Of a stretch of 52,044 nt of DNA, positions 4,705 to 50,668 are shown one piece after another. How positions within the stretch are numbered: position 1 is the first letter of the stretch; the number at the start of each line of letters is the position of its first letter. The stretch comes from a virus (lineage: Duplodnaviria; Caudoviricetes). Where the stretch lies: IMG/VR virus record IMGVR_UViG_3300028835_000313, positions 1-52,044 of that record; one strand, written 5' to 3'. Both the position numbers and the translations under genes were made by a program. The notes under the pieces were generated by a model, which saw nothing but the letters and a program-made list of their open reading frames with translations, made no database searches and had not been told where the DNA came from.

Positions 4705-5412
4705 ATGTCAGATTCATGCAATATTAAATTAGAGCCATATAAATACAGATGTTTATGCGGAGGGGTAGTTACTAGAGAAAATTGGAAAAATAAGGGATAT
4801 AAATTTAACAATGTAAGCGGATTTAAATGGATGCCTTGTAGTAAATGTGGTAAAAATTACACTAATCAAGATAGAGGCGTACATATTTATTACATTGAAG
4901 AAAATGAGTATTGGATTGATATGCTGGGATACAAAGGTGCTTATAAAATAAGTAATCACGGAAGAATTAAGTCTTTAAAGAGAAAAGACTCTATTGGGAG
5001 AAAGGTTAATGAAAAGATGATAAGTCAAAGGTTATCAAAAGAAGGATATTTTATGGTTAAACTCTACAATAAAAGATATCAAGTTCATCAATCAATGGTA
5101 GAATCATTTCTACAAACAAAAACAGATGGTAAAAATTTCGTCGTCAATCATATTGATCATAACAAGGAAAATAACCACTTATCCAATTTAGAAATCGTTA
5201 CCCCAAGACAAAATTCAAACAAAAAACATATAAAGCATTCTTCAAAATACACAGGAGTAACATGGAACAAGAACAAAAACAAATGGACTTCTAGGATATA
5301 TCTAAATGGAAAATTAAAACATTTAGGTCATTTCGATAACGAATATGAAGCTCATCTAGCATACGAAAAAGAATTAGAAGGAATCTGGATAGATATTAAC
5401 ACACTTGATTAA
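4705..5412 (+). CDS. NUMOD4-HNH-AP2 homing endonuclease with N-terminal Zn-finger extension
   Basis: W.DMLGYKGAYKISNHGRIKS; VNHIDHNKENNHLSNLE; SKYTGVTW...HLGHFDNEYEAH. Confidence 0.88.
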   Translation: MSDSCNIKLEPYKYRCLCGGVVTRENWKNKGYKFNNVSGFKWMPCSKCGKNYTNQDRGVHIYYIEENEYWIDMLGYKGAYKISNHGRIKSLKRKDSIGRKVNEKMISQRLSKEGYFMVKLYNKRYQVHQSMVESFLQTKTDGKNFVVNHIDHNKENNHLSNLEIVTPRQNSNKKHIKHSSKYTGVTWNKNKNKWTSRIYLNGKLKHLGHFDNEYEAHLAYEKELEGIWIDINTLD

Positions 5413-6498: not shown

Positions 6499-6744
6499 AT
6501 GGCATATTTTAGTAATTCATCAGACGGGGCAATATTTGACGAACAGTGTTCTAAGTGTAAATACGGAGAAGATTCTTGTCCAATTGCAACAGCTCAATTT
6601 CTTTATAATTATGATGTCTGTGGTAATAAAACAGCAACCAATATTTTAAATACAATAGTGGATGAAAAAGGTATTTGTCAAATGCGACATACTTTTAAAA
6701 AGGATTTAGCTACAGACGGAAGCACACAAATAAAATTATTCTAA
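6499..6744 (+). CDS. Cys-rich hypothetical protein
   Basis: CSKC...CP...C pattern. Confidence 0.6.
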   Translation: MAYFSNSSDGAIFDEQCSKCKYGEDSCPIATAQFLYNYDVCGNKTATNILNTIVDEKGICQMRHTFKKDLATDGSTQIKLF

Positions 6745-6788
6745 TTGCGTTTGAAGAGATTATAACTTATTTGAATAACTAAAATATT

Positions 6789-8831: not shown

Positions 8832-9485
8832 ATGGCAGAAAATAAAAAATCATTTATCGCCTACATAGATTGGAAGGAGACATTTGATTCTCTTCCTGAT
8901 GATAAAGCTGGTCAATTAATAAAGCACATATTTGCATACGTCAATGACGAAAATCCACAAACTGATGATATTTTAATTAATGCTGTATTCGCCAATATAC
9001 GGCAAACTCTTAAAAGAGATTTAAAGAAGTGGGAAAAACAACATCAACAAAGAGTTGAAGCCGGTAGAATAAGTGCTGAAAAAAGAAAGCATCCGTCAAC
9101 GACCATTGAACGACCGTTGAACGAAACTCAACAAGCGTCAACTGTTAGTGTTAATGATAGTGTAAGTGATACTGTAACTGTTAAAAAAAAGAGTATAGAT
9201 GACAGAAAATCGGATTTTAAAAAATCCTTACTCCCTCATTTAGAAAAATATGGCAAGGATATTCTTAATGAGTTTTATGCTTATTGGACAGAACATGGTG
9301 AAAGTGACCGAAAGATGAGATTTGAGAAACAGACTAGTTTTAGTATTACAAGAAGATTGTCCACTTGGAAAAAAAATGAAAATAAATTCAGTTCAAATGA
9401 AAAAAATAAATCAAATAACAGGGGAGGCTTTGAAAGTGATACCACGAAACGCACAATTGAGCAAATCCAAAACGGATTTGAATAA
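8832..9485 (+). CDS. Putative replication initiator (DUF6291-like N-terminus)
   Basis: KKSFIAYIDW...L.D..AGQLIK.IF.Y; low-complexity linker; FYAYW...RLSTW C-terminus. Confidence 0.7.
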   Translation: MAENKKSFIAYIDWKETFDSLPDDKAGQLIKHIFAYVNDENPQTDDILINAVFANIRQTLKRDLKKWEKQHQQRVEAGRISAEKRKHPSTTIERPLNETQQASTVSVNDSVSDTVTVKKKSIDDRKSDFKKSLLPHLEKYGKDILNEFYAYWTEHGESDRKMRFEKQTSFSITRRLSTWKKNENKFSSNEKNKSNNRGGFESDTTKRTIEQIQNGFE

Positions 9486-9942
9486 ACGTTCAGAAGCCGT
9501 TTTAAACCGTTTTGAGACAGCTAAAGATTTTGCGGTGCAATTTAACATGGACTATTGTGCTAATAAATATATCGCTATCAAGACGAATTACGAAGGGCTA
9601 ATGTCAAACACGGTTAAACTGAGAGAACTTTCAGATTGCTATGGTGATAAAAATATTTCCAATTGGATTGCATCTTGGTTAGTTGTTTTGTCCAGTAAAA
9701 TGGATTTCCAAATAAGCCCGGAACAGGCTGGAACCACTTCTGTTTTGATTTTAGAAGAATTATATATGATTAACATTTCTGAATTCTCTCTTTTCTTTAA
9801 ACGATTACTTAAAGGTGACTACGGGATATTCTATGGTAAGTTTAATATCCAAACGATATTGATGGCATGTAAGGAATTTAGGATGCAGAGAGGATTTGTA
9901 TTGTCGAAATTGAGTGAAGAGGATCAATTAAAACTATTGTGA
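9322..9942 (+). CDS. Replication-associated protein downstream of the initiator (start uncertain, possibly 9376 or 9397)
   Basis: Position; GDYGIFYGKF motif. Confidence 0.55.
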   Translation: MRNRLVLVLQEDCPLGKKMKINSVQMKKINQITGEALKVIPRNAQLSKSKTDLNKRSEAVLNRFETAKDFAVQFNMDYCANKYIAIKTNYEGLMSNTVKLRELSDCYGDKNISNWIASWLVVLSSKMDFQISPEQAGTTSVLILEELYMINISEFSLFFKRLLKGDYGIFYGKFNIQTILMACKEFRMQRGFVLSKLSEEDQLKLL

Positions 9943-9943
9943 A

Positions 9944-10195
9944 ATGGAAACAAATTATCAAAAAGCAAAAAGAACATTAATAGACAATTCAGCAATTTTA
10001 GGGATAGAATTGCCGGAAGATGGACTTATACTTAGAATGCTAAAATTAGCTGCTACACCTGACAAAGATTTATTGGATGCAGCAAGGGACTGTAGTACTT
10101 GTAAACATCAACAAGTAAGTAAATACGTAGAACCTTGTTATGGTTGCAGGGACAATGATGGCTATGATAATTTTGAAAGTACTATTGTAATATGA
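9944..10195 (+). CDS. Cys-rich hypothetical protein
   Basis: CSTC...PCYGC. Confidence 0.6.
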   Translation: METNYQKAKRTLIDNSAILGIELPEDGLILRMLKLAATPDKDLLDAARDCSTCKHQQVSKYVEPCYGCRDNDGYDNFESTIVI

Positions 10196-10413
10196 ATCAA
10201 ATCTACGAACAGCATAAAAGAAGTGAAGCTAATTAAAAATTAAAGGATGATAATATTAATAGTACTGATAATTTTATTTATAATAGGGCTTTGCTTAATG
10301 GATGAGCGAGTTTTCAATTAGTAAAGCGGAGAAATAAACGAGCTTCTTAGCGAGTTAGTTTGTTTACAACGGTGTTGGTATGGCATTTTATTTTACGGAT
10401 TAAAAGCACGGAC

Positions 10414-10737
10414 ATGGATAAAAAAACAATAGAAATACTAAACTTTCTTAAAGAAAAATCAGTATTTGAAACGAGCGAAAACGGTAATAAGGGACATGTA
10501 ATTTGGAGTAATGAATTTTATAAAGTAGCACAGGAGTTAGTAAAATTATTTACTATACCTGATGTTAGCTTTTTTCTTAAAATTCCGCCTCCAAATTTAA
10601 AGCAAAAAAATATTTCAGAAAAGTCAGAAATAGCTAAGCAGCTAAAGAATAAAGGATATAGTATCAGAGAAATAATGAAAATACTTGGATATAAATCTCC
10701 CAGAAGCATTCAAGTGCTGTTAGCAAAGGAATTTTAA
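10414..10737 (+). CDS. Chimeric-looking protein with C-terminal HTH module
   Basis: GYSIREIMKILGYKSPRSIQVLL; junction GTT at 10564. Confidence 0.65.
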   Translation: MDKKTIEILNFLKEKSVFETSENGNKGHVIWSNEFYKVAQELVKLFTIPDVSFFLKIPPPNLKQKNISEKSEIAKQLKNKGYSIREIMKILGYKSPRSIQVLLAKEF

Positions 10738-10807
10738 TATTAAAGCTAACGGTTGGCTGTAAACGGAGCTTGAGAATTGTGAAAGAATTTTATAAAAAAG
10801 AAATATT

Positions 10808-10993
10808 ATGGAAGATGTAATTTATTATTTGATGGATGACCTTCATAAGAGCTATAGATTTAAGGCGAAATATGAAAAGAGAGATAACGTAAAAATGGTT
10901 GGTATCATATCAAAAAGGATTGATAATTTCGAGAAAGCTATTTCTATTTTAGAAAAGGCTGAGAACAATACACGAGTGGAGGTAATTCGATAA
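10808..10993 (+). CDS. Hypothetical protein
   Basis: ORF within the module array. Confidence 0.6.
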   Translation: MEDVIYYLMDDLHKSYRFKAKYEKRDNVKMVGIISKRIDNFEKAISILEKAENNTRVEVIR

Positions 10994-11066
10994 AACGATT
11001 TATATAAGTTGTCGAAATTTTGGCAGCACGCAGAGAATTTGATTTAACAACTAAAAATAGAATACA

Positions 11067-11348
11067 ATGAAAAACTTAATTAAAAGAATACATTTTGCAA
11101 TTTATATTTTGTTAGCGGTAGTTGTTTTTGGATGCAATAACAAACCAAAAAACAATCCTAAAATAGACCGCAGTAAATTATACAGAGAAGCATCCTATTA
11201 TAGCATAGAAGCATCGTGGTGCTATAAGCAAGCCACTATCGCTGTATTTGAGAGAAATAAACACAAAAAGGATTCATTAGTGTTAAAGGCGATTGAATAT
11301 AGTAAGAAAGCGGATAGTTTAACAAATGTAGCCAACAATTACCGCTAA
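11067..11348 (+). CDS. Putative lipoprotein
   Basis: Signal peptide with VFGC lipobox-like motif. Confidence 0.65.
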   Translation: MKNLIKRIHFAIYILLAVVVFGCNNKPKNNPKIDRSKLYREASYYSIEASWCYKQATIAVFERNKHKKDSLVLKAIEYSKKADSLTNVANNYR

Positions 11349-11393
11349 CGTAAATAATAAACACTGATTTTTAACGGATAAATAACTACGAAC

Positions 11394-11648
11394 ATGACAG
11401 AACAAGAAAAGATTGATAAAGTAGCCGATAAAGTAACTGAATACACAACAGCAACAATGCACAACCAAGGACTAATTAGTTACAATGATATACCAAAATT
11501 AGCAACTGAGATAGTTAAAAATTTGGGTTTATTTAGTGTTAGCAATAACGAAGTGGCGGTTTGCGAAACCTGTAAAACACCGCTTCAATTATTTAATGAT
11601 GGTAGACCATTTTGCCCTAGCTGCCTAAAGATTTATAAAGCAAACTGA
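11394..11648 (+). CDS. Protein with C-terminal CxxC...CxxC Zn-ribbon module
   Basis: CETC...CPSC after the GTT junction at 11538. Confidence 0.65.
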   Translation: MTEQEKIDKVADKVTEYTTATMHNQGLISYNDIPKLATEIVKNLGLFSVSNNEVAVCETCKTPLQLFNDGRPFCPSCLKIYKAN

Positions 11649-11692
11649 TTGCAACGTTCTGTGCATGAACTTTAATTAAAATTATTTGAGCG

Positions 11693-11896
11693 ATGGGAAA
11701 AAGAGTAGTTTATTTAAAAGAGTTCGATACATTCGGAGAAGAAGTTGATGTGAAGGTAACGTGCAATAATTGGAATGCCTTTCTGCGAGTGTGGGATATT
11801 GAAACTCTCCAATTAATAATGGATACACAAATTCAAAATGAAAATTATGAAGCAGCTGGACTTATTAAGGAACATATAGAACGGAAAGGTGCGTAG
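11693..11896 (+). CDS. Hypothetical protein with UVR-like C-terminus, enclosed in an inverted repeat
   Basis: ENYEAAGLIKE. Confidence 0.6.
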   Translation: MGKRVVYLKEFDTFGEEVDVKVTCNNWNAFLRVWDIETLQLIMDTQIQNENYEAAGLIKEHIERKGA

Positions 11897-12068
11897 GCAA
11901 TTTTAATTATTGTTTATTGCACTTTGTTGTAAATTGAGAAATTTTTACAAAAAGGTTACCAGTCGATAATATCTCTGTTCATAATTAAATGTATTAATTT
12001 ACAAACAAAGATAGTAAAAATTTATTTGTTTATAACTTGTTTATATCAACAACTAATTCATATCTATA

Positions 12069-12266
12069 ATGGCTAAACCTATTGATTTACAATATACTTA
12101 TAAAAAGCATGTGGGTTTTACTCAGATTCAAAAAGAATCCTTAATAACACTTAAAAACTATGGTGTAGATGTGAATCAATTTATTAGGCAGGCAGTAAAA
12201 GAAAAGATTCTCCGCGATTGGAAAGAAATAAAAGAAAGTAAAAATAAAGCGTATTGTCCATTTTAA
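12069..12266 (+). CDS. Small putative DNA-binding (ribbon-helix-helix-like) protein
   Basis: VNQFIRQAVKEKI. Confidence 0.5.
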   Translation: MAKPIDLQYTYKKHVGFTQIQKESLITLKNYGVDVNQFIRQAVKEKILRDWKEIKESKNKAYCPF

Positions 12267-12268
12267 AT

Positions 12269-12296
12269 AAAAAAGCCGGAGTCAACACCCCGGCTT
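12269..12296 (-). terminator. Intrinsic terminator at the convergence of the two arms
   Basis: AAGCCGG...CCGGCTT stem with an A-tract on the left. Confidence 0.75.
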
Positions 12297-12331
12297 CAAA
12301 ATCTAACTAAACTTAAACTTATGAAAATAAA

Positions 12332-12700
12332 CTATTTTCTTTTTGCCTCAATTGTATTTTTAAGCAAGTCTGTTAAAGCCATTGCAACACCTATAAAAGC
12401 ATTCGTTTGATGCTGACCTTTTATTCTTTTTATTGTAATAATTTCATCTGCCGCCACCCCTATTGCTTGTCCAGCAGCATCCCAATTACCATTATTAATG
12501 CTTTGGATTGCAGTATTTATTAACGGATCAACTCTATCCGGAATAACCTTATCGCCGTATTCATTTGCAAATTGAATTATTGTTTTAAGAATCTTTTTAG
12601 CTATTCCTTTTAAAAACCAGGGAACTTTTGCCTTAAATTTTAAAAATAGGTAATCAACAATTAATTGAGTTGTTTCTTTTGTCCAAACTTTTCCATCCAT
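12332..12700 (-). CDS. Hypothetical protein
   Basis: ORF with its own - strand promoter (CAAATTTA 12721-12728, CAAA 12748). Confidence 0.7.
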   Translation of the reverse strand: MDGKVWTKETTQLIVDYLFLKFKAKVPWFLKGIAKKILKTIIQFANEYGDKVIPDRVDPLINTAIQSINNGNWDAAGQAIGVAADEIITIKRIKGQHQTNAFIGVAMALTDLLKNTIEAKRK

Positions 12701-12809
12701 GATATTTATTTTTGATTAATCAAATTTACGTATAATTATTAAATTTGCAAAACAATGTTTAAAAGCATATTTAACAACTTGATTTCAATTTTATTTATTT
12801 GTATATTGC

Positions 12810-13054
12810 AGTCTCAAAAGTTATTTGAAATTTTGATTGATCTTTGAAAATGAATATCGTTGTGCTGATAATGAATGGCTGCAAACATTTAAAAACAGTA
12901 AACGAGTCCTTGCAGGGATATATGGATAAAGCTAAAAATAAATAATCCGGCGACGCCTTAATTTAGCAATTCCCGGAATCCGAAATCAAAAGAATAGCAT
13001 CCAGAAGATTAATTGAATTTTGATTAAAGGCTCGGCAAATTGTCGGGCTTTTTT
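12810..13054 (+). ncRNA. Candidate ~240-nt small RNA or leader transcript
   Basis: Promoter-like TTG...TATATTGC (12779-12809), no long ORF, terminator at 13027-13054. Confidence 0.35.
13027..13054 (+). terminator. Intrinsic terminator (possibly bidirectional)
   Basis: AAGGCTCGGCAA/TTGTCGGGCTT followed by a T-tract. Confidence 0.75.
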
Positions 13055-13059
13055 AACGC

Positions 13060-13293
13060 TTATTTAAAACGCTTTAGTTTCCTTTTGGAATAATCCCTTA
13101 TCAATTTCCAGTTTCGCGTTAATTTATGCCCCAAACTACCTGAGAATAGAAATGCGATAACAACTTCGATTGCTTCTTCTGTTTCCAGATCAATCAAGTC
13201 TGGTTTTAATCTCATAATTAACTTTAAAGCTAAAAATGCGATTGCAACTGAAGGAGTTTTAGAACCGTTACTTTTTTGGATCAGCTTTTTCAT
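13060..13293 (-). CDS. Small membrane protein (holin-like)
   Basis: Two hydrophobic segments and a basic C-terminus; next to the endolysin. Confidence 0.5.
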   Translation of the reverse strand: MKKLIQKSNGSKTPSVAIAFLALKLIMRLKPDLIDLETEEAIEVVIAFLFSGSLGHKLTRNWKLIRDYSKRKLKRFK

Positions 13294-13370
13294 ATTCTAA
13301 ATAACTGTGATAGAATTCATAGGCACTCCATAAGAAAAGAAAAATGCATGTTGTTATTATTGTATCCATG

Positions 13371-13814
13371 TTAAGGAAATTCAGACCGTACATTAAAGGC
13401 AGGACAAGACTTCATCCATTCATCTGGCATAATTACTCCATCTCCATTTAAATCAGGTGATAAATCGCGGTGCCCCATCCATTCGGTTACATCAAACATT
13501 CGTTCAATGAATAATTTACAAGCAATCAAGGCTTGTTTCTGAGCATCAGTCCGGGTGTCTTTAGGGTTTAAATCGTTATCCAAGCCACCTTCATAGCAAA
13601 TAGCAATAAATCCTTTATTATATCCTTTGGCGTGTGCCAATTGAGTCCCAAATGGTCTACCTTGATGAATTGATCCATCTCTTTCGATGTAAAGGTTATA
13701 TCCTATATCTGACCAACCATTTTTATCAATGTGCATTTTCTTGCACTGTTCGAATGTTAAACGGCTTTTCTCAGGGGTTGCAGAACAATGGATACATACT
13801 TTAATTTTCTTCAT
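13371..13814 (-). CDS. Endolysin, N-acetylmuramoyl-L-alanine amidase (Amidase_2, T7 lysozyme-like)
   Basis: IHCSAT, GWSDIGY, AHAKGYN, ICYEGG, GHRD, KSCPAF. Confidence 0.93.
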   Translation of the reverse strand: MKKIKVCIHCSATPEKSRLTFEQCKKMHIDKNGWSDIGYNLYIERDGSIHQGRPFGTQLAHAKGYNKGFIAICYEGGLDNDLNPKDTRTDAQKQALIACKLFIERMFDVTEWMGHRDLSPDLNGDGVIMPDEWMKSCPAFNVRSEFP

Positions 13815-14055
13815 TTGATTTCAATTTTTCCAGTTTAATCTCTTTAATCTCTAATTCAATTTTACCTGTTTTTCTTTTGGTTAACAGAATTGAAACCCAT
13901 ATAATACCGGCAACAATACCTATTAGACCGGCTATTGCACTTATTGAATCATCTATAATTGGTGATAGCTTTGCAACGGCTGAAAGAATGAATCCAACAA
14001 CCCACACAATTCCTGAAACTATCTGTGCTATAAATTTCATGCAAAAATCGCCCAT
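13801..14055 (-). CDS. Putative holin
   Basis: Two TM helices and a charged C-terminus, directly upstream of the endolysin. Confidence 0.6.
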   Translation of the reverse strand: MGDFCMKFIAQIVSGIVWVVGFILSAVAKLSPIIDDSISAIAGLIGIVAGIIWVSILLTKRKTGKIELEIKEIKLEKLKSNEEN

Positions 14056-31991: not shown

Positions 31992-32822
31992 TTAATTAAT
32001 ACTAAATTTGTCTGTTAAATATTCGTAATTTATTTGAGTGGATTTCTCCGGCTCATTATTTTTTGACGTGTCCTTTGACGGCGTCTGTTTTGCATTATTA
32101 TCTAGTGTTGGTGTTACCCAATTACTTCCTAATGGAACCGCTGAACCTTCAATTACTTTAGCCTCTTTTACAGCCCAAAAGAATCCTTTATCTTCTGCTG
32201 CTTCTTTATTGGCTATCATTGGAAAATATTTCTCCCATGCTTCAAATTCAGCTCCGAAATTATCATCATTTACACAAAACACTAATTGAACATACCTCAT
32301 ACCAACGCTATGGTTTTTTACATATCCATTAGCATATTGAAGGAGCATAAATTCATTTCGCTTACGTTCTATTGTTGATTCAAAAACTAAAGCTTGCGTA
32401 TTGCCTTCAAAATCAAAACCTAATTCAGCCCAAGTAAAATCACGTGTGAATGCTTTTAGATTATTCGCATCTGAGATTATATTCTCAAATCTCATAGCAT
32501 GTTCCTGAAGATGCATTATCATTTTATTTTCTTTCAAACTCTTTTTCCATAAATTAGGAATATGAACATCTGCATGTCCATCAAGCAAATTTGAAGTATT
32601 AATAATAACGACAACTTTTAATTCGGTTAAGCTATCCACATTAATAGGTTCATTTGCTTTTTCAGCAGAACCTTTATCGCGAACAATTACCGGAGCAAAA
32701 GAAACACAATCAGCGTGCTTTAATTCTGCTTTTTTCTGAGTCATAATACTCTCCTTGTTCTTTACAAGAAATTCTATCAGATCAGATTTTGTCTTAAATT
32801 TCGATTCGTCAAATAATTCCAT
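31992..32822 (-). CDS. Prohead maturation protease (HK97-like)
   Basis: DGHAD, LQEH, HSVGM, EGSAVPLGSN. Confidence 0.8.
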   Translation of the reverse strand: MELFDESKFKTKSDLIEFLVKNKESIMTQKKAELKHADCVSFAPVIVRDKGSAEKANEPINVDSLTELKVVVIINTSNLLDGHADVHIPNLWKKSLKENKMIMHLQEHAMRFENIISDANNLKAFTRDFTWAELGFDFEGNTQALVFESTIERKRNEFMLLQYANGYVKNHSVGMRYVQLVFCVNDDNFGAEFEAWEKYFPMIANKEAAEDKGFFWAVKEAKVIEGSAVPLGSNWVTPTLDNNAKQTPSKDTSKNNEPEKSTQINYEYLTDKFSIN

Positions 32823-36714: not shown

Positions 36715-37328
36715 TCTGGTTTTTTGCCATACTTTAACTGATAGAGTTCTTCGAATGACCTACCTTCTAATCCTGTAGATTGTAATGTCCCATCCTTGTT
36801 TGACAAATCATGTTTTTCGGCGGCATTATACCCCATCATTTTGTTAATTTCAGCAATAGCCTGAATCTTACTGAAGAACTTTACTTTAACATACTTTACT
36901 TCCAAATCACAATCATCTCCGATAGTCCTTTCCTCTGTTTTTGTATCAATCGATTCAACGGCTGCAAGTATAAATGGATTATCTTTTTTTATCTCTTCCC
37001 AATTCTTTAAATCAATCCAATCATCGTGAATCATTTCAATAGAAGTATAAGCTAATTTAGATAATTCATTCAATTGTCGAAGCTTAGTTATCCCTGATTC
37101 TACCTCGAAATCATCCTTTATCAAATCTATATATTTACATATGTTAGTATTTGTTAGTAATATAGATGCATTTGCTCTAGCTGATGAATCTTTTTTGCAT
37201 CCAACATAAGCTGCTTTATATGAGCGTGTTCCATTCCAGTCGATTATGTATTGGTGGCAAAATATTACTTGTTTAGGAGTTAGCAATTTTTTTAATTCGG
37301 GTTTTATATATTTCTTTTCCTCTGCCAT
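36711..37328 (-). CDS. terS: Terminase small subunit
   Basis: LTPKQVIFCHQYIIDWNGTRSYKAAY; ATG at 37328 just after a TATATTTG promoter element (37333-37340). Confidence 0.88.
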   Translation of the reverse strand: MAEEKKYIKPELKKLLTPKQVIFCHQYIIDWNGTRSYKAAYVGCKKDSSARANASILLTNTNICKYIDLIKDDFEVESGITKLRQLNELSKLAYTSIEMIHDDWIDLKNWEEIKKDNPFILAAVESIDTKTEERTIGDDCDLEVKYVKVKFFSKIQAIAEINKMMGYNAAEKHDLSNKDGTLQSTGLEGRSFEELYQLKYGKKPE

Positions 37329-37593
37329 TATGCAAATATAATTAAAATAATCAATCCGATTAAAACTACTATTCTTCCAATATTGAAAGTCTGGATGCAT
37401 AAATACATTCCGTTTATTTGTTTTTTTCTTATTAATTGAAATGCTTTTTCTTTTTCAATTAGTTCAGTCTTTTGTTTGTCTGTGTGTGCATTAAATTTTA
37501 CCTTTCTGTTTCGCCTAAATGAGATTATCAAAGCTATATTGGCTAATATCGCCACTGCACTCATTAATAGGCTTATGATTAATACTATACTCA

Positions 37594-40509: not shown

Positions 40510-40805
40510 CGCTGACTCTTGGTAAATATTTTAATTATTCCACTGTCGGGGTGTTGGTATATAACCATGGCAATTACCTGCTCATTGTCATAGGATTCTC
40601 CGGCTTTTGCTAATTTTGTTTTAAAGTTTTCAGAGTCGTACACAACTAAGGAACCTGATTTAAATTCAGAAGTATTTAATCCGGTTATTTCTACTCCTGT
40701 CTCTGTGTCAATTCCTGATACCTTCCCAAATATGCTATCATATCCAATTAATGGACATGAAAATCCAATAATAACCCCAATTGCAATTGTAATTAGTTTT
40801 TTCAT
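40506..40805 (-). CDS. Exported protein or lipoprotein
   Basis: MKKLITIAIGVIIGFSC. Confidence 0.6.
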   Translation of the reverse strand: MKKLITIAIGVIIGFSCPLIGYDSIFGKVSGIDTETGVEITGLNTSEFKSGSLVVYDSENFKTKLAKAGESYDNEQVIAMVIYQHPDSGIIKIFTKSQR

Positions 40806-47475: not shown

Positions 47476-47982
47476 ATGGAAAACAAAACTCATTACAGAA
47501 AGGTATTTAAGAGCGATCATTTAGGGGTTGCCGACTTGGAAGATTTAATCGAAGAAAAAAAACGATTAGTATTCACAATCAAACACGTTAAACAAGAATT
47601 TGGCGTAACTGTTGCAGGTCGCAAAGGCGATCATAACATTGCATATTTCAAAGAACCTATCAAGCCATTAGTATTAAATGCGACCAATTCAAAGGTAATG
47701 AAATCTTTTAACAATGGAAGCCCTTTTGTTGAAGATTGGTCTAATACAGTTGTTGAATTATACATTGATCCAAATGTAAAAATGAAAGGTGATATTGTTG
47801 GTGGTGTAAGGATTAAACCAAGTAAACCAACACTTGCAAAACCAAACCTAATACCTGAGAATAAAAAGGTTTGGGATGCTGCAATAGTTTATTTAAAAGG
47901 CGAAGGTACGATTGACAGTATTAAAGGCAAATATAGTATTTCAGCAACCAACGAACAAAAGCTAAAAGATGCCACAATATAG
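47476..47982 (+). CDS. Putative ssDNA-binding/annealing partner of the exonuclease
   Basis: KPLVLNATN...W....VELY...G.RI pattern; overlaps the YqaJ gene. Confidence 0.55.
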   Translation: MENKTHYRKVFKSDHLGVADLEDLIEEKKRLVFTIKHVKQEFGVTVAGRKGDHNIAYFKEPIKPLVLNATNSKVMKSFNNGSPFVEDWSNTVVELYIDPNVKMKGDIVGGVRIKPSKPTLAKPNLIPENKKVWDAAIVYLKGEGTIDSIKGKYSISATNEQKLKDATI

Positions 47983-48580
47983 ATTCGACATAAAACAAAA
48001 TTCGGATGAGTGGTTTGCTTTAAAAGTTGGTAAATTCAGTGCTTCAACTTGCGCAGAGCTTTTGATGAATAAAAAAACAAAAGGCTACACAGGATTAATC
48101 GATCGAATAGTTGAGGAAAGAATGACCGGGAACCCAACCGAAAGTAAAACATTTAAAGGTAATCAATTTACTGAACGAGGTCATGAATTAGAGCCGGTAG
48201 CCAGGGATGATTACGAAATGCGAACATTCCGGGATATTGCTATAATTGGCGTTATTGAATTGGATGATTGGGTTCTTTGCTCTCCAGATGGATTGATAGG
48301 AGAAGATGGATTGTGGCAAGCTAAATGCCCTATATTCAATACTCAGAAAAGTTATTTGAAAAGCCAGAAAGTACCTACAAACTATTACAAGCAAATGCAA
48401 TTTGAATTGTTTGTTTCTGGCCGTGAGTATAATGTGTTTAACTCTTATCATCCATATTTACCAGCGGTTGATATTGTTGTTAAACGCGATGAGGAAATGA
48501 TAACTATAATCCAGCAACGGATAAAAGAAGCAAAGAAAGAAATTTTGAATGAAATCAAATTACTTAAAAGTTTTGCGTAA
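47969..48580 (+). CDS. YqaJ/lambda-exonuclease-family recombination nuclease
   Basis: QNSDEWFALKVGKFSAS, RGHELEP.AR, SPDGL, QAKCP, YYKQMQF. Confidence 0.9.
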   Translation: MPQYRFDIKQNSDEWFALKVGKFSASTCAELLMNKKTKGYTGLIDRIVEERMTGNPTESKTFKGNQFTERGHELEPVARDDYEMRTFRDIAIIGVIELDDWVLCSPDGLIGEDGLWQAKCPIFNTQKSYLKSQKVPTNYYKQMQFELFVSGREYNVFNSYHPYLPAVDIVVKRDEEMITIIQQRIKEAKKEILNEIKLLKSFA

Positions 48581-49916: not shown

Positions 49917-50107
49917 ATAAAATGGCACGATACAAACTAACAAAGAATACTTACAAGCGACAATCAGCAATAGATATTCAACGTGTAGATGATCGTTTGC
50001 GATTATTTAATATATTTGTATTGCAGTCGAGTCTAATTAACTCGTTCAATGAGGTTACACATTCCTGCTGCATTACTTCTAATAATGTGTATAAAAATGT
50101 AAATATT

Positions 50108-50668
50108 ATGCAAGAAAAAGAAATTTGGAAAGATATCGAAGGCTACAAGGAGTATTATCAAGTAAGCGATCATGGGAACGTTAAGAGATTAGCGAGATTT
50201 AGTAGTAATAATCATTTTCTAAAAGAACGAATATTAAAACCGCATAATAACTATGGATATTTGCGTGTCGGATTACACAAAAACCATAATAAGAAACTCT
50301 TTCTTGTGCATAGATTAGTATTAATCGCATTTAAGAAAAACCCATACAATAAGACACAATGCAATCATATCGATGGCATTAAATCTAATAATTATATAGA
50401 CAATTTAGAATGGAGTACATGTGCTGAAAATAATCAACATGCTTATGATACTGGATTAAATAAAGGATCTAGATTTGGTAAATTCGGAAAAGACAATCCA
50501 AATAGTAAACCACTATTTCAAATAAATAAATTCAATAACGAAATTATTAAGGAGTGGGATTCGGTGATAGATGTAGAAAGAAAATTGGGTTATCATAGTG
50601 GATGCATAGCTAGTGCGTGTAGGGGTGAATACAAAACTGCCTCGGGTTTTAAATGGCGATATAAATAA
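50108..50668 (+). CDS. NUMOD4-HNH-NUMOD1 homing endonuclease
   Basis: EIWKDIEGYKEYYQVSDHGNVK, VHRLV, NHIDGIKSNN...NLEW, ACRG...GFKW; likely ATG 50108, with the frame open from 49922. Confidence 0.9.
   Translation: MQEKEIWKDIEGYKEYYQVSDHGNVKRLARFSSNNHFLKERILKPHNNYGYLRVGLHKNHNKKLFLVHRLVLIAFKKNPYNKTQCNHIDGIKSNNYIDNLEWSTCAENNQHAYDTGLNKGSRFGKFGKDNPNSKPLFQINKFNNEIIKEWDSVIDVERKLGYHSGCIASACRGEYKTASGFKWRYK

Follow-up and report, generated by a model that had tools for sequence, protein, structure and literature searches.

The window, by which we mean the whole stretch of 52,044 nucleotides analysed here (phage record IMGVR_UViG_3300028835_000313), carries on its plus strand an operon of small early genes that is closed by a G+C-rich terminator hairpin at 12272-12297, lying where the early (+) and late (-) gene blocks converge and GC skew marks the switch of strand. 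A sequence-only reading of this DNA had described the region as modules bounded by inverted repeats and had singled out two pairs of arms, here pair 1 (11344-11543) and pair 2 (11652-11929). Our analysis agrees that the region is built of such modules, and all four arm strings are where that reading had placed them. The best-supported local stems, however, are of the form GTTAGC...GCTAAC around C-terminal modules, with a polarity opposite to that of the two pairs; that reading had not given them as pairs at this point.

There are three such elements, which we call C cassettes, all on the plus strand and all with a T before the left arm, a G after the right arm and an ORF stop in or just before the right arm. 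E1 (10564-10750) surrounds the HTH C-module of ORF 10414-10737 with 23-nt arms (10564-10586 and 10728-10750) that are 87% complementary and form the top inverted repeat of the window. Its left site, TATACCTGAT followed directly by GTTAGC, matches the upstream consensus of the gene family described below, GTT AGC being in frame as V-S and the TAA within GCTAAC also in frame, and the closing stem of the isolated element has pair probabilities of 0.63-1.0. E1 retains GTTAGC...GCTAAC, while its inner arm differs from that of the family. E2 (11111-11349) is canonical: its arms, GTTAGCGGTAGTTGTT (11111-11126) and AACAATTACCGCTAAC (11334-11349), carry the full core of the family's C stem, which neither pair 1 nor pair 2 does, and they surround the mature part of a lipoprotein-like ORF (11067-11348). 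Here frame 1 runs through the left arm and gives L-A-V-V of the signal peptide, and the stop is the TAA within GCTAAC. The E2 stem has pair probabilities of 0.32-1.0, and when 1.7 kb of the operon are folded together it alone keeps an appreciable probability (0.43).

ORF 11394 (11394-11648, plus strand, 84 aa) begins with a helical N-module (aa 1-48), which a V-S linker (codons GTTAGC) joins to a zinc-ribbon C-module of the form CxxC...CxxC, whose matches to zinc-ribbon Pfam families are weak; it has no detectable paralogy to ORF 10414. The zinc-ribbon module is enclosed by E3 (11538-11655), a degenerate cassette with arms GTTAGCAAT (11538-11546) and ATTGCAAC (11648-11655) that form 8 bp with one bulge, the right arm overlapping the last base of the TGA; this agrees with the module end at ...GATTGCAAC proposed earlier. 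The cores of both E1 and E3 are non-canonical. Because its position and frame fit the family, in which non-canonical cores with matching partners are common, we regard E3, on sequence grounds, as a probable member.

Pair 1 extends on the plus strand from the right site of E2 (GCTAAC followed by G) to the left site of E3 (GTTAGC preceded by T), and its loop contains the start codon of ORF 11394 with most of the N-terminal module. Pair 2, with arms at 11652-11683 and 11899-11929 on the plus strand, flanks ORF 11693 (11693-11896, plus strand, 67 aa), which lies wholly between the arms, as had been claimed. The proposed pairing of the arms holds for ungapped cores of 20 nt in pair 1 (11356-11375 with 11514-11533, 85% complementary) and 19 nt in pair 2 (11665-11683 with 11899-11917, 84%); over their full 30-32 nt the arms of both pairs match imperfectly and can be aligned only with gaps.

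The two arm pairs against chance

In the window, inverted repeats with loops of 20-400 nt number 38 at a threshold of at least 11 and 16 at a threshold of at least 12, against 31.9 ± 5.2 and 10.7 ± 3.0 in 20 dinucleotide shuffles. With gapped scoring, which gives both pairs a score of 12.5, there are 22 repeats of at least 12, against 13.9 ± 3.4 in 40 block shuffles. Each taken alone, pairs 1 and 2 are of chance grade. Their arm cores are not repeated motifs and occur at chance frequency, and when both blocks were folded as single-stranded DNA on both strands, the check that the sequence-only reading had suggested, the folds were no better than those of shuffles (z = +0.06 to +0.57). As for clustering, 6 of the 14 copies of GTTAGC lie inside 10564-11543, but in 17 of 60 shuffles at least one hexamer is concentrated to that degree, and the local clustering of inverted repeats is marginal, being reached by 1 to 7 of 100 shuffles depending on the threshold. 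A loose scan of the window for GTTR...YAAC stems did not set it apart from shuffles, with 18 rows, two elements being listed on both strands, against a shuffle mean of 9 and maximum of 15, and Rfam had nothing at gathering score in this region or at 7 family loci. The repeat counts, the arm-core frequencies, the single-stranded folds and the weak clustering speak for one explanation of the pairs, namely that both are chance matches in DNA of 31% G+C and that E2 is real but unrelated to them.

For pair 2 the case for chance is strengthened by its folding. In the RNA ensemble its pair probabilities are 0.01-0.02, the stem is unused in the minimum-energy fold, and forcing it costs 2.7 kcal/mol. 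The right arm is instead taken up by a local RNA hairpin (11881-11930, plus strand) over the stop codon of ORF 11693, with 20 pairs, 6 of them G.U, and an energy of -16.9 kcal/mol (z -3.77, equalled by 2 of 200 shuffles), which is also present when the whole block is folded. Pair 2 lacks the family core, there is no GTTAGC-type left site at its far end, and its left arm begins at the right site of E3. Against chance, pair 2 does start at a family site, and when examined as a J stem (described below) it scores 11.5, compared with 5.5 ± 1.2 for swapped partners in the family, although here the right window was taken from the arms of the sequence-only reading. In this comparison nt 10-28 pair with nt 9-27, a register difference of 1, and between the arms lies an entire ORF, stop codon included. 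With its left arm directly next to the right site of E3 and its right arm engaged in the local 3' hairpin, pair 2 most probably does not work as a long-range stem, and we incline slightly towards regarding it as a chance match.

ORF 11693 is itself a real small gene, from a family of small proteins with a conserved ENYExAExI motif near the C-terminus. It has 56 homologues at E ≤ 1e-3 among 1.84 billion representatives, and its alignment comprises the 28 of these that are small full-length proteins. It matched nothing in Pfam or PHROG, a word-index search returned only the ORF itself, on 3 contigs, and a scan of viral contigs found no viral locus for the family. The sole relative locus found, in a metagenome (L042), has no flanking repeat; a partial match in a genome (L043) was not confirmed by profile search. 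We also considered whether the block could be a miniature mobile element (MITE/MPME-like) and rejected this: in the window the arm core is no commoner than chance predicts, no DNA match was found in phage records, and the homologue at L042 is without flanking repeat. The 172-nt gap between this gene and ORF 12069 contains a further inverted repeat of C polarity, GTTGTAAAT...GTTTATAAC (11926-12036, plus strand, 23 nt, 78% complementary), without coding cargo and with an RNA fold z of -1.45.

A family of genes with two stems

What rescues pair 1 from chance grade is that its position, geometry and score match the J stems of a large family of phage genes. A scan for two 10-nt cores 122-181 nt apart found this two-stem architecture in at least 120 IMG/VR phage stretches, with about 10 estimated by chance, and it is also present in the cultured Flavobacterium phage 6H. 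The sample derives from one exact-match pattern and is biased to canonical cores and to cargos of 122-181 nt; among the matches listed there are 117 unique elements, 94 of them oriented, the 23 unoriented ones being left out of later counts. Judged from these sequences, the family is real.

The C stem, about 15 bp long, has the conserved core GTTAGCRGTAGT...ATTACYGCTAAC and surrounds a hypervariable C-terminal coding cargo; in one relative (L036) a canonical stem surrounds a whole ORF, so that the earlier claim of a complete gene within a hairpin, which is not supported for the pair 2 stem, does apply to that locus. Some family cores read GTTAGGC/GCCTAAC. At positions 11-12, which lie outside the search pattern, 106 of 129 elements among the matches listed, on other phage contigs, carry GT in one arm and AT in its partner, reproducing the 12-nt core and G/A asymmetry of E2, and this places a G.U pair at position 11 on the coding strand. 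The two arms covary. Among the matches listed, position 13 pairs with its own partner in 95.7% of elements and with swapped partners in 44.2%, position 14 in 93.5% and 41.6%, and position 7 in 100% and 83%, while the -1/+1 position has 62 U.G and 0 A.C and is either U.G or Watson-Crick in 75 of 93. Non-canonical cores have at most 2 mismatches to their partner in 16 of 54 cases, compared with 3 of 266 swapped controls. Folded as RNA, 3 of 3 C units gave z of -4.4 to -6.1.

Among the matches listed, the longest frame from the left arm is frame 0 (V-S-G-S) in 81 and frame 1 (L-A-V-V) in 13 of the 94 oriented elements, and the open frame ends at the right arm in 87 of the 94. That one DNA word is read in two frames indicates that the constraint acts on the nucleic acid itself. 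The position of inverted repeats inside coding sequence, at the junction of constant and variable parts, could also suggest invertible segments, as in invertons or shufflons, in which inversion would switch the C-terminal module, and 52 of the 81 frame-0 elements among the matches listed do show a frame symmetry, with a length of 1 mod 3. However, the flipped frame is no more open than the control (mean open fraction 0.41 versus 0.38), the ORF is on the G.U-reading strand in all 94 of 94 oriented elements among the matches listed, and the genome in the window has no invertase. In one sequencing run that contains the stretch and is possibly its source, the contigs showed no variant or joint and not both cassette orientations, although rare forms would be invisible there. 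We regard inversion as extremely improbable.

The J stem, of about 20 bp, is variable in sequence but covarying, and closes a loop of about 75 nt with the start codon and a short leader. It pairs approximately nt 6-23 after TAAC with approximately nt 3-19 before GTTAGC, at a register difference of 2-4. Among the matches listed, J units score 10.6 ± 2.8 with their own partner and 5.5 ± 1.2 with swapped partners, 73% of 63 reach at least 9 with the true partner against 1.1% when swapped, and the register is fixed in 61 of 63. TAACG is at -123 to -121 in 42 of these 63 J units among the matches listed, and J units are typically about 122-146 nt long. Folding of 12 J units as RNA closed the long stem in 11 and gave z of at most -2.3 in 10. 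Wobble pairs in the J stem are strongly unequal, with 84 G.U and 19 A.C among the matches listed. This bias, present in both stems, points to a structure on the sense strand, most simply RNA, rather than to a DNA hairpin on either strand, and it is the sole basis on which we choose between RNA and single-stranded DNA of the sense strand.

Pair 1 has these properties. In it, nt 7-26 on the J-left side pair with nt 5-24 on the J-right side at a difference of 2, its local complementarity score is 12.5, and ATG 11394 is in the loop, as the sequence-only reading had seen in stating that such a loop can hold the start of a gene. Its exact placement between two family sites, its family geometry, its score, reached by only 0.3% of swapped-partner J controls, and its J-left motif, AACGTAAATAATAAA, which recurs in another locus (L083), argue against chance. 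Its RNA fold has a z-score of only -1.12, its pair probabilities in the RNA ensemble of the isolated block are 0.24-0.81, and at 188 nt it is longer than the family mode of about 122 nt; the J unit preceding E2 has no clear stem (scores 5 and 7.5). We take pair 1, with somewhat more confidence than doubt, to be the J unit of ORF 11394, a weak and AT-rich example of the family. A chance origin of pair 1 seems unlikely to us, and the joint explanation, with both pairs due to chance and E2 unrelated, quite improbable.

Among cultured phages, gp47 of phage 6H (37011-37348) combines a J stem with the ATTACCGCTAAC stop, and its TAACG precedes GTTAGCGGTAGT by exactly 122 nt; a typical J unit matched no cultured phage. 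In open-access text, searches for the core sequences and for Flavobacterium phage repeats returned only primers or unrelated work. The two-stem design of phage genes is widespread and apparently undescribed.

Exchange boundaries at the arms

In 10 pairs of family loci the main block of homology consists of J only in 5, C only in 3 and J+C in 1, with its ends at the arms, the tenth pair having the left site alone in common. J units are 79-95% identical across otherwise unrelated contexts. For the window's own genes the comparison is with one protein, P0003, encoded on a contig of 1335 bp, which is 76% identical to residues 1-42 of ORF 11394 and continues with an unrelated Cys-rich module. The earlier expectation that boundaries in relatives should coincide with the arms is thus borne out by the locus pairs of the family and, at the protein level, by this one case. 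Scans of viral, metagenome and genome contigs found no locus with relatives of ORF 11394, and tblastn of ORF 11394 and ORF 11693 against cultured phages gave no match. The closest genome (G001) shares tail genes, a DNA methylase, an exonuclease of YqaJ type and, from the DUF6291 replication protein, the N-terminal half, and does not have the cassette region of the window in common; a search for distant DNA similarity of 9000-14000 to cultured phages matched only a replication gene, outside pairs 1 and 2.

The near-fixed length of J units and their high identity in unrelated contexts could be explained if J units were miniature inverted-repeat mobile elements that bring a stop, a start and a leader, the C units being the stretches between insertions. 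The arm cores would then resemble terminal inverted repeats, with the stop in one and an open frame through the other. On this explanation, however, the two arms that flank one cargo are ends of different J units, and yet positions 13-15 and 7 covary between them. C units also move alone with both their arms, the flank consensus has no visible target-site duplication, and no transposase was seen in the flanks, which makes mobile J units very unlikely in our judgment.

Another possibility is that the arms are DNA recombination sites, the J units being attC-like (folded as single-stranded DNA) or pdif-like and the cassettes being moved by a site-specific recombinase of phage or host. The polarity AAC...GTT, the attC-like J size of about 122-146 nt, the conservation of J structure above sequence with an unpaired spacer beside the cores, the alternation of orientation along the window, the exchange boundaries at the arms and the occurrence of GTTAGGC/GCCTAAC cores all favor this. 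So does a small Xer-like tyrosine recombinase in 7 of the 120 listed loci, directly downstream of an element in 2, although it falls under the curated cut-offs both for integron integrase (152.6 versus 265) and for Xer. Yet the flanks of the other 113 of 120 listed loci have no recombinase, and the complete 52-kb genome in the window has no tyrosine recombinase above cut-off (PF00589 reaches 11.5 bits, the cut-off being 27.1) and no serine recombinase, nor is there an integron integrase among 20 early ORFs. Furthermore, it is across the cargo and not across J that the arms covary, the wobble is always on the coding strand, and the source-run contigs, at contig level, show no joints. We consider recombination sites decidedly unlikely. 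More generally, no enzyme is common to the flanks of all 120 listed loci, the commonest neighbors being DNA methylase (16), YqaJ (8) and the Xer-like recombinase (7).

A proposed scheme and its relation to known systems

How could such an arrangement work? We propose, as an explanation we hold somewhat likelier true than false, that pair 1 and E1-E3 belong to a succession of small early genes that follow the two-stem modular plan, and that this plan is widespread among phages, at any rate among those of Flavobacteriaceae. A J unit would start directly after the stop of the preceding gene (...TAAC followed by G), and its stem of about 20 bp would close a loop of about 75 nt in which an A-rich leader region accompanies the start codon and the codons that follow it. 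The adjoining C unit would close its variable C-terminal cargo with a stem of about 15 bp, the stop lying in or just before the right arm. Both stems would form within the sense-strand transcript, and as each would close its module on itself, the start region would be left unpaired whatever cargo adjoins. The arms may also serve as crossover points for swaps of J and C units between phages, since the shared arm sequences are the sole homology between otherwise unrelated genes. Such swapping would probably proceed via phage short-homology recombination, for which the genome has a candidate in its YqaJ exonuclease gene (47969-48580). The strict conservation of the core sequence, which structural insulation would not need, hints at a factor recognizing the sequence.

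No part of phage genomes is less understood or changes faster than the small early genes; many of these are thought to act in counter-defence, and their route of exchange is an old open question. The architecture described here is defined by sequence and can be searched, aligned and tested. Should the stems act in the transcript, they would make translation starts independent of neighboring sequence in organisms without Shine-Dalgarno pairing, and if the arms are crossover labels, they would explain in-frame domain shuffling among unrelated phages and provide a handle for cataloguing the cargo pool. One may go further and imagine that phages of Flavobacteriaceae, and probably of many other Bacteroidota, have an integron-like, integrase-free system within genes, made of portable start units (J) and swappable cargo units (C), every unit closed by a stem of its own, in which the 12-nt core is an address label that allows any cargo to recombine in frame behind any leader, in whichever phage has the label, and so gives the phage population a shared pool of hypervariable early proteins; we put this forward tentatively and think it more doubtful than not.

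The sequence-only reading had compared the loops with attC sites of integrons, which have the cores R'' RYYYAAC and R' GTTRRRY, are compact, about 57-141 nt, with no gene inside, and recombine as a folded bottom strand with extrahelical bases. The arms of pair 1 (CGCTAAC, GTTAGCA) and pair 2 (TGCAACG, GTTGTAA) fit the AAC/GTT triplet and only 1-2 further positions, and the blocks, at 200 and 278 nt, hold a gene start or a whole ORF; with this coding content, and with no recombinase in the complete genome, the analogy fails as a statement of membership. As a likeness it has some merit: in both systems an imperfect inverted repeat follows each ORF, structure is conserved above sequence, the cargo is variable, the triplets at the ends are AAC...GTT, and J units, typically of about 122-146 nt, are of similar size. 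On the other hand, the genome in the window is without integron integrase, the loop has a start codon and coding sequence, translation continues in frame from the junction unit into the cargo, around which a second stem closes, both junctions recombine independently, and the wobble bias is on the coding strand.

In the pdif sites of Acinetobacter plasmids, which are 28-bp Xer sites between genes, modules are likewise flanked by inversely oriented short sites that alternate along an array. Here, in contrast, the sites are in coding sequence and their stems have covarying extensions. A constant N-terminal part with a conserved junction and swapped hypervariable C-modules is known also from polymorphic proteins, such as CdiA with its VENN motif, and from the capsid-targeting leaders of T4 internal proteins, and the J/C genes resemble these in having a short constant N-terminus and a conserved junction before C-modules swapped by recombination. 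However, it is a protein motif that is conserved there, whereas in the J/C family the constraint is on the nucleotides, one and the same word being read in two frames and having its non-coding complement beyond the stop.

Finally, the PeSL cassettes of T4-type phages, as described in PMC2839356 and PMC4122927, are intergenic and combine a strong early promoter of sigma-70 type with a local terminator stem-loop. In both cases short conserved structured sequences lie beside small, variable and mostly unknown early genes. The J/C family belongs to another host group, and no promoter is evident in its region: promoter-like sites number 17, against 11.1 ± 3.4 in shuffles, with a consensus that does not cover Bacteroidota promoters, and a consensus scan found no terminator within pairs 1-2. 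Compared with the PeSL cassettes, each J/C gene has two long-range stems, the loop of one containing the start codon and that of the other the coding cargo; of the arms around the cargo, one is coding, in either of two frames, and the stop is in the other.

The two repeats and the cassettes of the window

The sequence-only reading claimed two inverted repeats that form hairpins whose loops hold a gene start or a whole gene. Our analysis leads further, to a two-stem cassette design of small phage genes that is conserved and can be searched for. The four arms are indeed present, at 11344-11375 / 11514-11543 (pair 1) and 11652-11683 / 11899-11929 (pair 2, around ORF 11693-11896). Judged alone, both repeats looked ordinary. 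Their ungapped cores span 20 nt (85%) and 19 nt (84%), respectively; shuffled sequence contains as many repeats of this quality as the window does, the arm cores do not recur as a motif, and single-stranded DNA folding, the check proposed for the hairpins, gave for both blocks and either strand nothing better than shuffles (z +0.06 to +0.57). The local excess of inverted repeats at 10564-11533 is marginal: four of the ten best pairs lie within 1.5 kb, a clustering reached by 1 of 100 block shuffles, while at lower thresholds the observed count is reached by 4-7 of 100. Six of the 14 copies of GTTAGC also cluster in this region, a signal lost after correcting for hexamer choice (17 of 60 shuffles match).

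The route to the family is a shared module. P0003, the one relative found for ORF 11394, is 76% identical over residues 1-42 and then continues into an unrelated Cys-rich module that is found behind many unrelated N-terminal parts. In L044, a viral locus with this module, the inverted repeat GTTAGCGGTAGTGCT / AGCATTACCGCTAAC encloses exactly the C-terminal module, and its 12-nt core is identical to that at window 11111-11126 / 11334-11349; a G-against-A arm difference is common to both, and the reading frame through the core differs between them. The identical core recurs on the opposite strand of L044, where both arms have changed in a compensatory way, and in locus L036, where it surrounds an entire ORF. 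Stems of the family can thus hold a whole gene: the L036 element (9876-10228, 353 nt) is a canonical C stem whose cargo is a complete ORF of 105 aa; this ORF has an ATG of its own and shares its frame with the V-S-G-S arm. Small metagenome proteins (P0003, P0060-P0069) carry the Cys-rich module itself (WDCDDCKHYPC...CGDHSERG) behind ten or more unrelated N-terminal parts, and at L044 1270-1641 a canonical cassette has it as cargo.

The window holds three such C units, C-terminal coding cargos closed by a stem of about 15 bp: E1 (10564-10750) around an HTH module, with a variant inner arm; the canonical E2 (11111-11349) around the mature portion of a lipoprotein-like protein; and the degenerate E3 (11538-11655), probably a family member, around a zinc ribbon. 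Pair 1 begins at the right site of E2, ends at E3's left site and is therefore a J unit, the stretch between cassettes, with a variable stem and a start codon in its loop. Its stem has the family geometry, with a score reached by 0.3% of swapped controls, and its base pairs have probabilities between 0.24 and 0.81 in the ensemble of the isolated RNA; it is AT-rich and weak (RNA fold z -1.12). The left end of pair 2 is the right site of E3 and the other end lies at no family site. The pair 2 stem is not populated (pair probabilities 0.01-0.02; enforcing it costs 2.7 kcal/mol), and a local hairpin that covers the ORF 11693 stop codon and contains six G.U pairs uses the right arm of pair 2. The original observation was half right in detail: comparison with the family supports pair 1 as a J unit, and the hairpin around a whole gene at pair 2 is not supported.

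ORF 11693 has 56 relatives at E<=1e-3 and is a real gene. The proteins of its family are small (about 55-98 aa) and share a conserved ENYExAExI motif, which resembles a UVR-type helix; some of the 56 matches lie in long repeat proteins. In the single locus recovered, the homologous gene overlaps its neighbours on both sides, and no repeat flanks it.

C and J stems across the family

Viral contigs were scanned for the two 10-nt cores at a spacing of 122-181 nt, which gave at least 120 stretches. At the two positions adjoining the searched core, GT in one arm faces AT in the other in 106 of the 129 elements listed, and this asymmetry was used to orient 94 of 117 unique elements, the remaining 23 being excluded from later counts. 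The left arm is translated as V-S-G-S in 81 of the 94 and as L-A-V-V, within a signal peptide or membrane helix, in 13. From there the frame is open as far as the stop, which is the TAA inside GCTAAC in 36 and lies 11-18 nt before the element end in 51. Cargos are mutually unrelated, many being Cys4 zinc ribbons, and are preceded by short hydrophilic leaders; third codon positions just upstream of the arm hold near-invariant bases. Stem positions 13-15 and 7 vary among elements and covary within one, and pairing ends at position 16 with no outward extension. Folded as RNA, the three C units short enough for this had z between -4.4 and -6.1. Among preceding cassettes whose core differs, 16/54 also have a matching left arm, versus 3/266 swapped controls. 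Rfam contains no such stem family, judging by the window region and seven family loci, where nothing reached the gathering score.

At about -122, 63 of the 94 elements carry [T/C]AACG, namely the preceding cassette's right arm. The 40 nt that follow it are complementary to the 40 nt before the left arm, partner-specifically (score 10.6+-2.8 for the true partner versus 5.5+-1.2 when swapped), in a register constant in 61/63 and with 84 G.U against 19 A.C wobbles. When 12 J units were folded as RNA (every fourth of 49 eligible, plus phage 6H), 11 closed by a stem of about 20 bp with the start codon in the loop, and z was -2.3 or lower in ten (best -6.3). A peptide recurs just before the left arm (LFTIPDVS, LGLFSVSN, LFAIPVVSN, VFNIANVSN; window 10414-10737 and 11394-11648, P0067, P0068); its coding sequence is the J stem's 3' strand together with the GTTAGC core.

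Cultured phages also carry these elements. Flavobacterium phage 6H gp47 (37011-37348, minus strand) is a textbook J plus C gene: its TAACG lies at -122, and a J stem, a leader of 18 codons and GTTAGCGGTAGT precede a stop codon within ATTACCGCTAAC; the same phage has a duplicated GTTAGC site pair (35017/35140 and 37401/37524). In Polaribacter phage P12002S several early genes stop at the TAA of a GCTAAC site (32102-32107), and gp60 has a 127-nt element (40620-40746, arms GTTAGCCAACAT / GTTAGCCACAAT); by their sequence, these are degenerate family members in a second cultured phage.

Exchange between phages and genome setting

Homology blocks were compared over +-900 nt in ten locus pairs. The main block was J only in five (79-95% identity), C only in three (77-90%) and J plus C in one, with a short upstream match besides; in all nine it terminates at arms, while the tenth pair has only the left site in common. 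This comparison is the check that the sequence-only reading had put forward, and for the cassette family its outcome favours the arms as homology boundaries. The P0003 swap point, a single case at protein resolution, is 11519/11520, inside the right arm of pair 1 and 18 nt upstream of GTTAGC.

The window is a complete virus record (52,044 bp, direct terminal repeats, about 31% G+C), with small rightward early genes up to about 12,300, leftward late genes beyond, and a strong hairpin between. The early region encodes a helicase, a DUF6291 protein, a DnaA-C-like HTH protein, a DNA methylase, an antirepressor, two NUMOD4-HNH endonucleases and a YqaJ exonuclease; in the complete genome there is no tyrosine recombinase above cut-off and no serine recombinase. 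The host is probably a member of the Flavobacteriaceae, because ORF 12069-12266 belongs to phrog_25647, with relatives in Flavobacterium psychrophilum and Polaribacter phages, and the replication genes are similar to their counterparts in Cellulophaga phages. NUMOD4-HNH homing-endonuclease-like paralogues lie at 4705-5412 and 49922-50668, one with an AP2 domain. ORF 6499-6744 is bracketed by a 16-nt inverted repeat with one mismatch (6504-6519 / 6772-6787), among the window's best yet without the family core. Elsewhere, DNA methylase genes often directly adjoin cassettes (16 of the 120 loci listed; L059, L111, L113, L117, L168 and others), the methylase stop codon in L059 being the TAA of the next J unit, and a small Xer-like recombinase lies within about 50 nt after the cassette in L083 and L149.

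Mechanism and comparison with known systems

Our analysis demonstrates two stems, covariation, a coding-strand wobble bias and homology breaks at the arms. We propose that the stems form in the transcript, closing each module on itself, and that the arms could serve as short homology for module swapping. Recombination enzymes would then act at the arms; YqaJ is present in the window and in the flanks of 8 of the 120 loci listed. That the core is conserved in sequence suggests an additional, sequence-reading factor. A less likely rival explanation is a DNA-level, site-specific mechanism at the arms: the small Xer-like recombinase occurs in 7 of the 120 loci listed, but its score falls short of the curated integron integrase and Xer cut-offs.

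In the open-access literature we found no description of the two-stem cassette architecture. Closest in shape is the integron attC site, to which the two repeats do not belong: the genome has no integron integrase above cut-off, the blocks of 200 and 278 nt hold a gene start or a whole ORF, and their core heptamers do not fit the attC consensus. The closest described concept, going by the abstracts (PMC2839356, PMC4122927), is that of the promoter-early stem-loop (PeSL) cassettes of T4-type phages.
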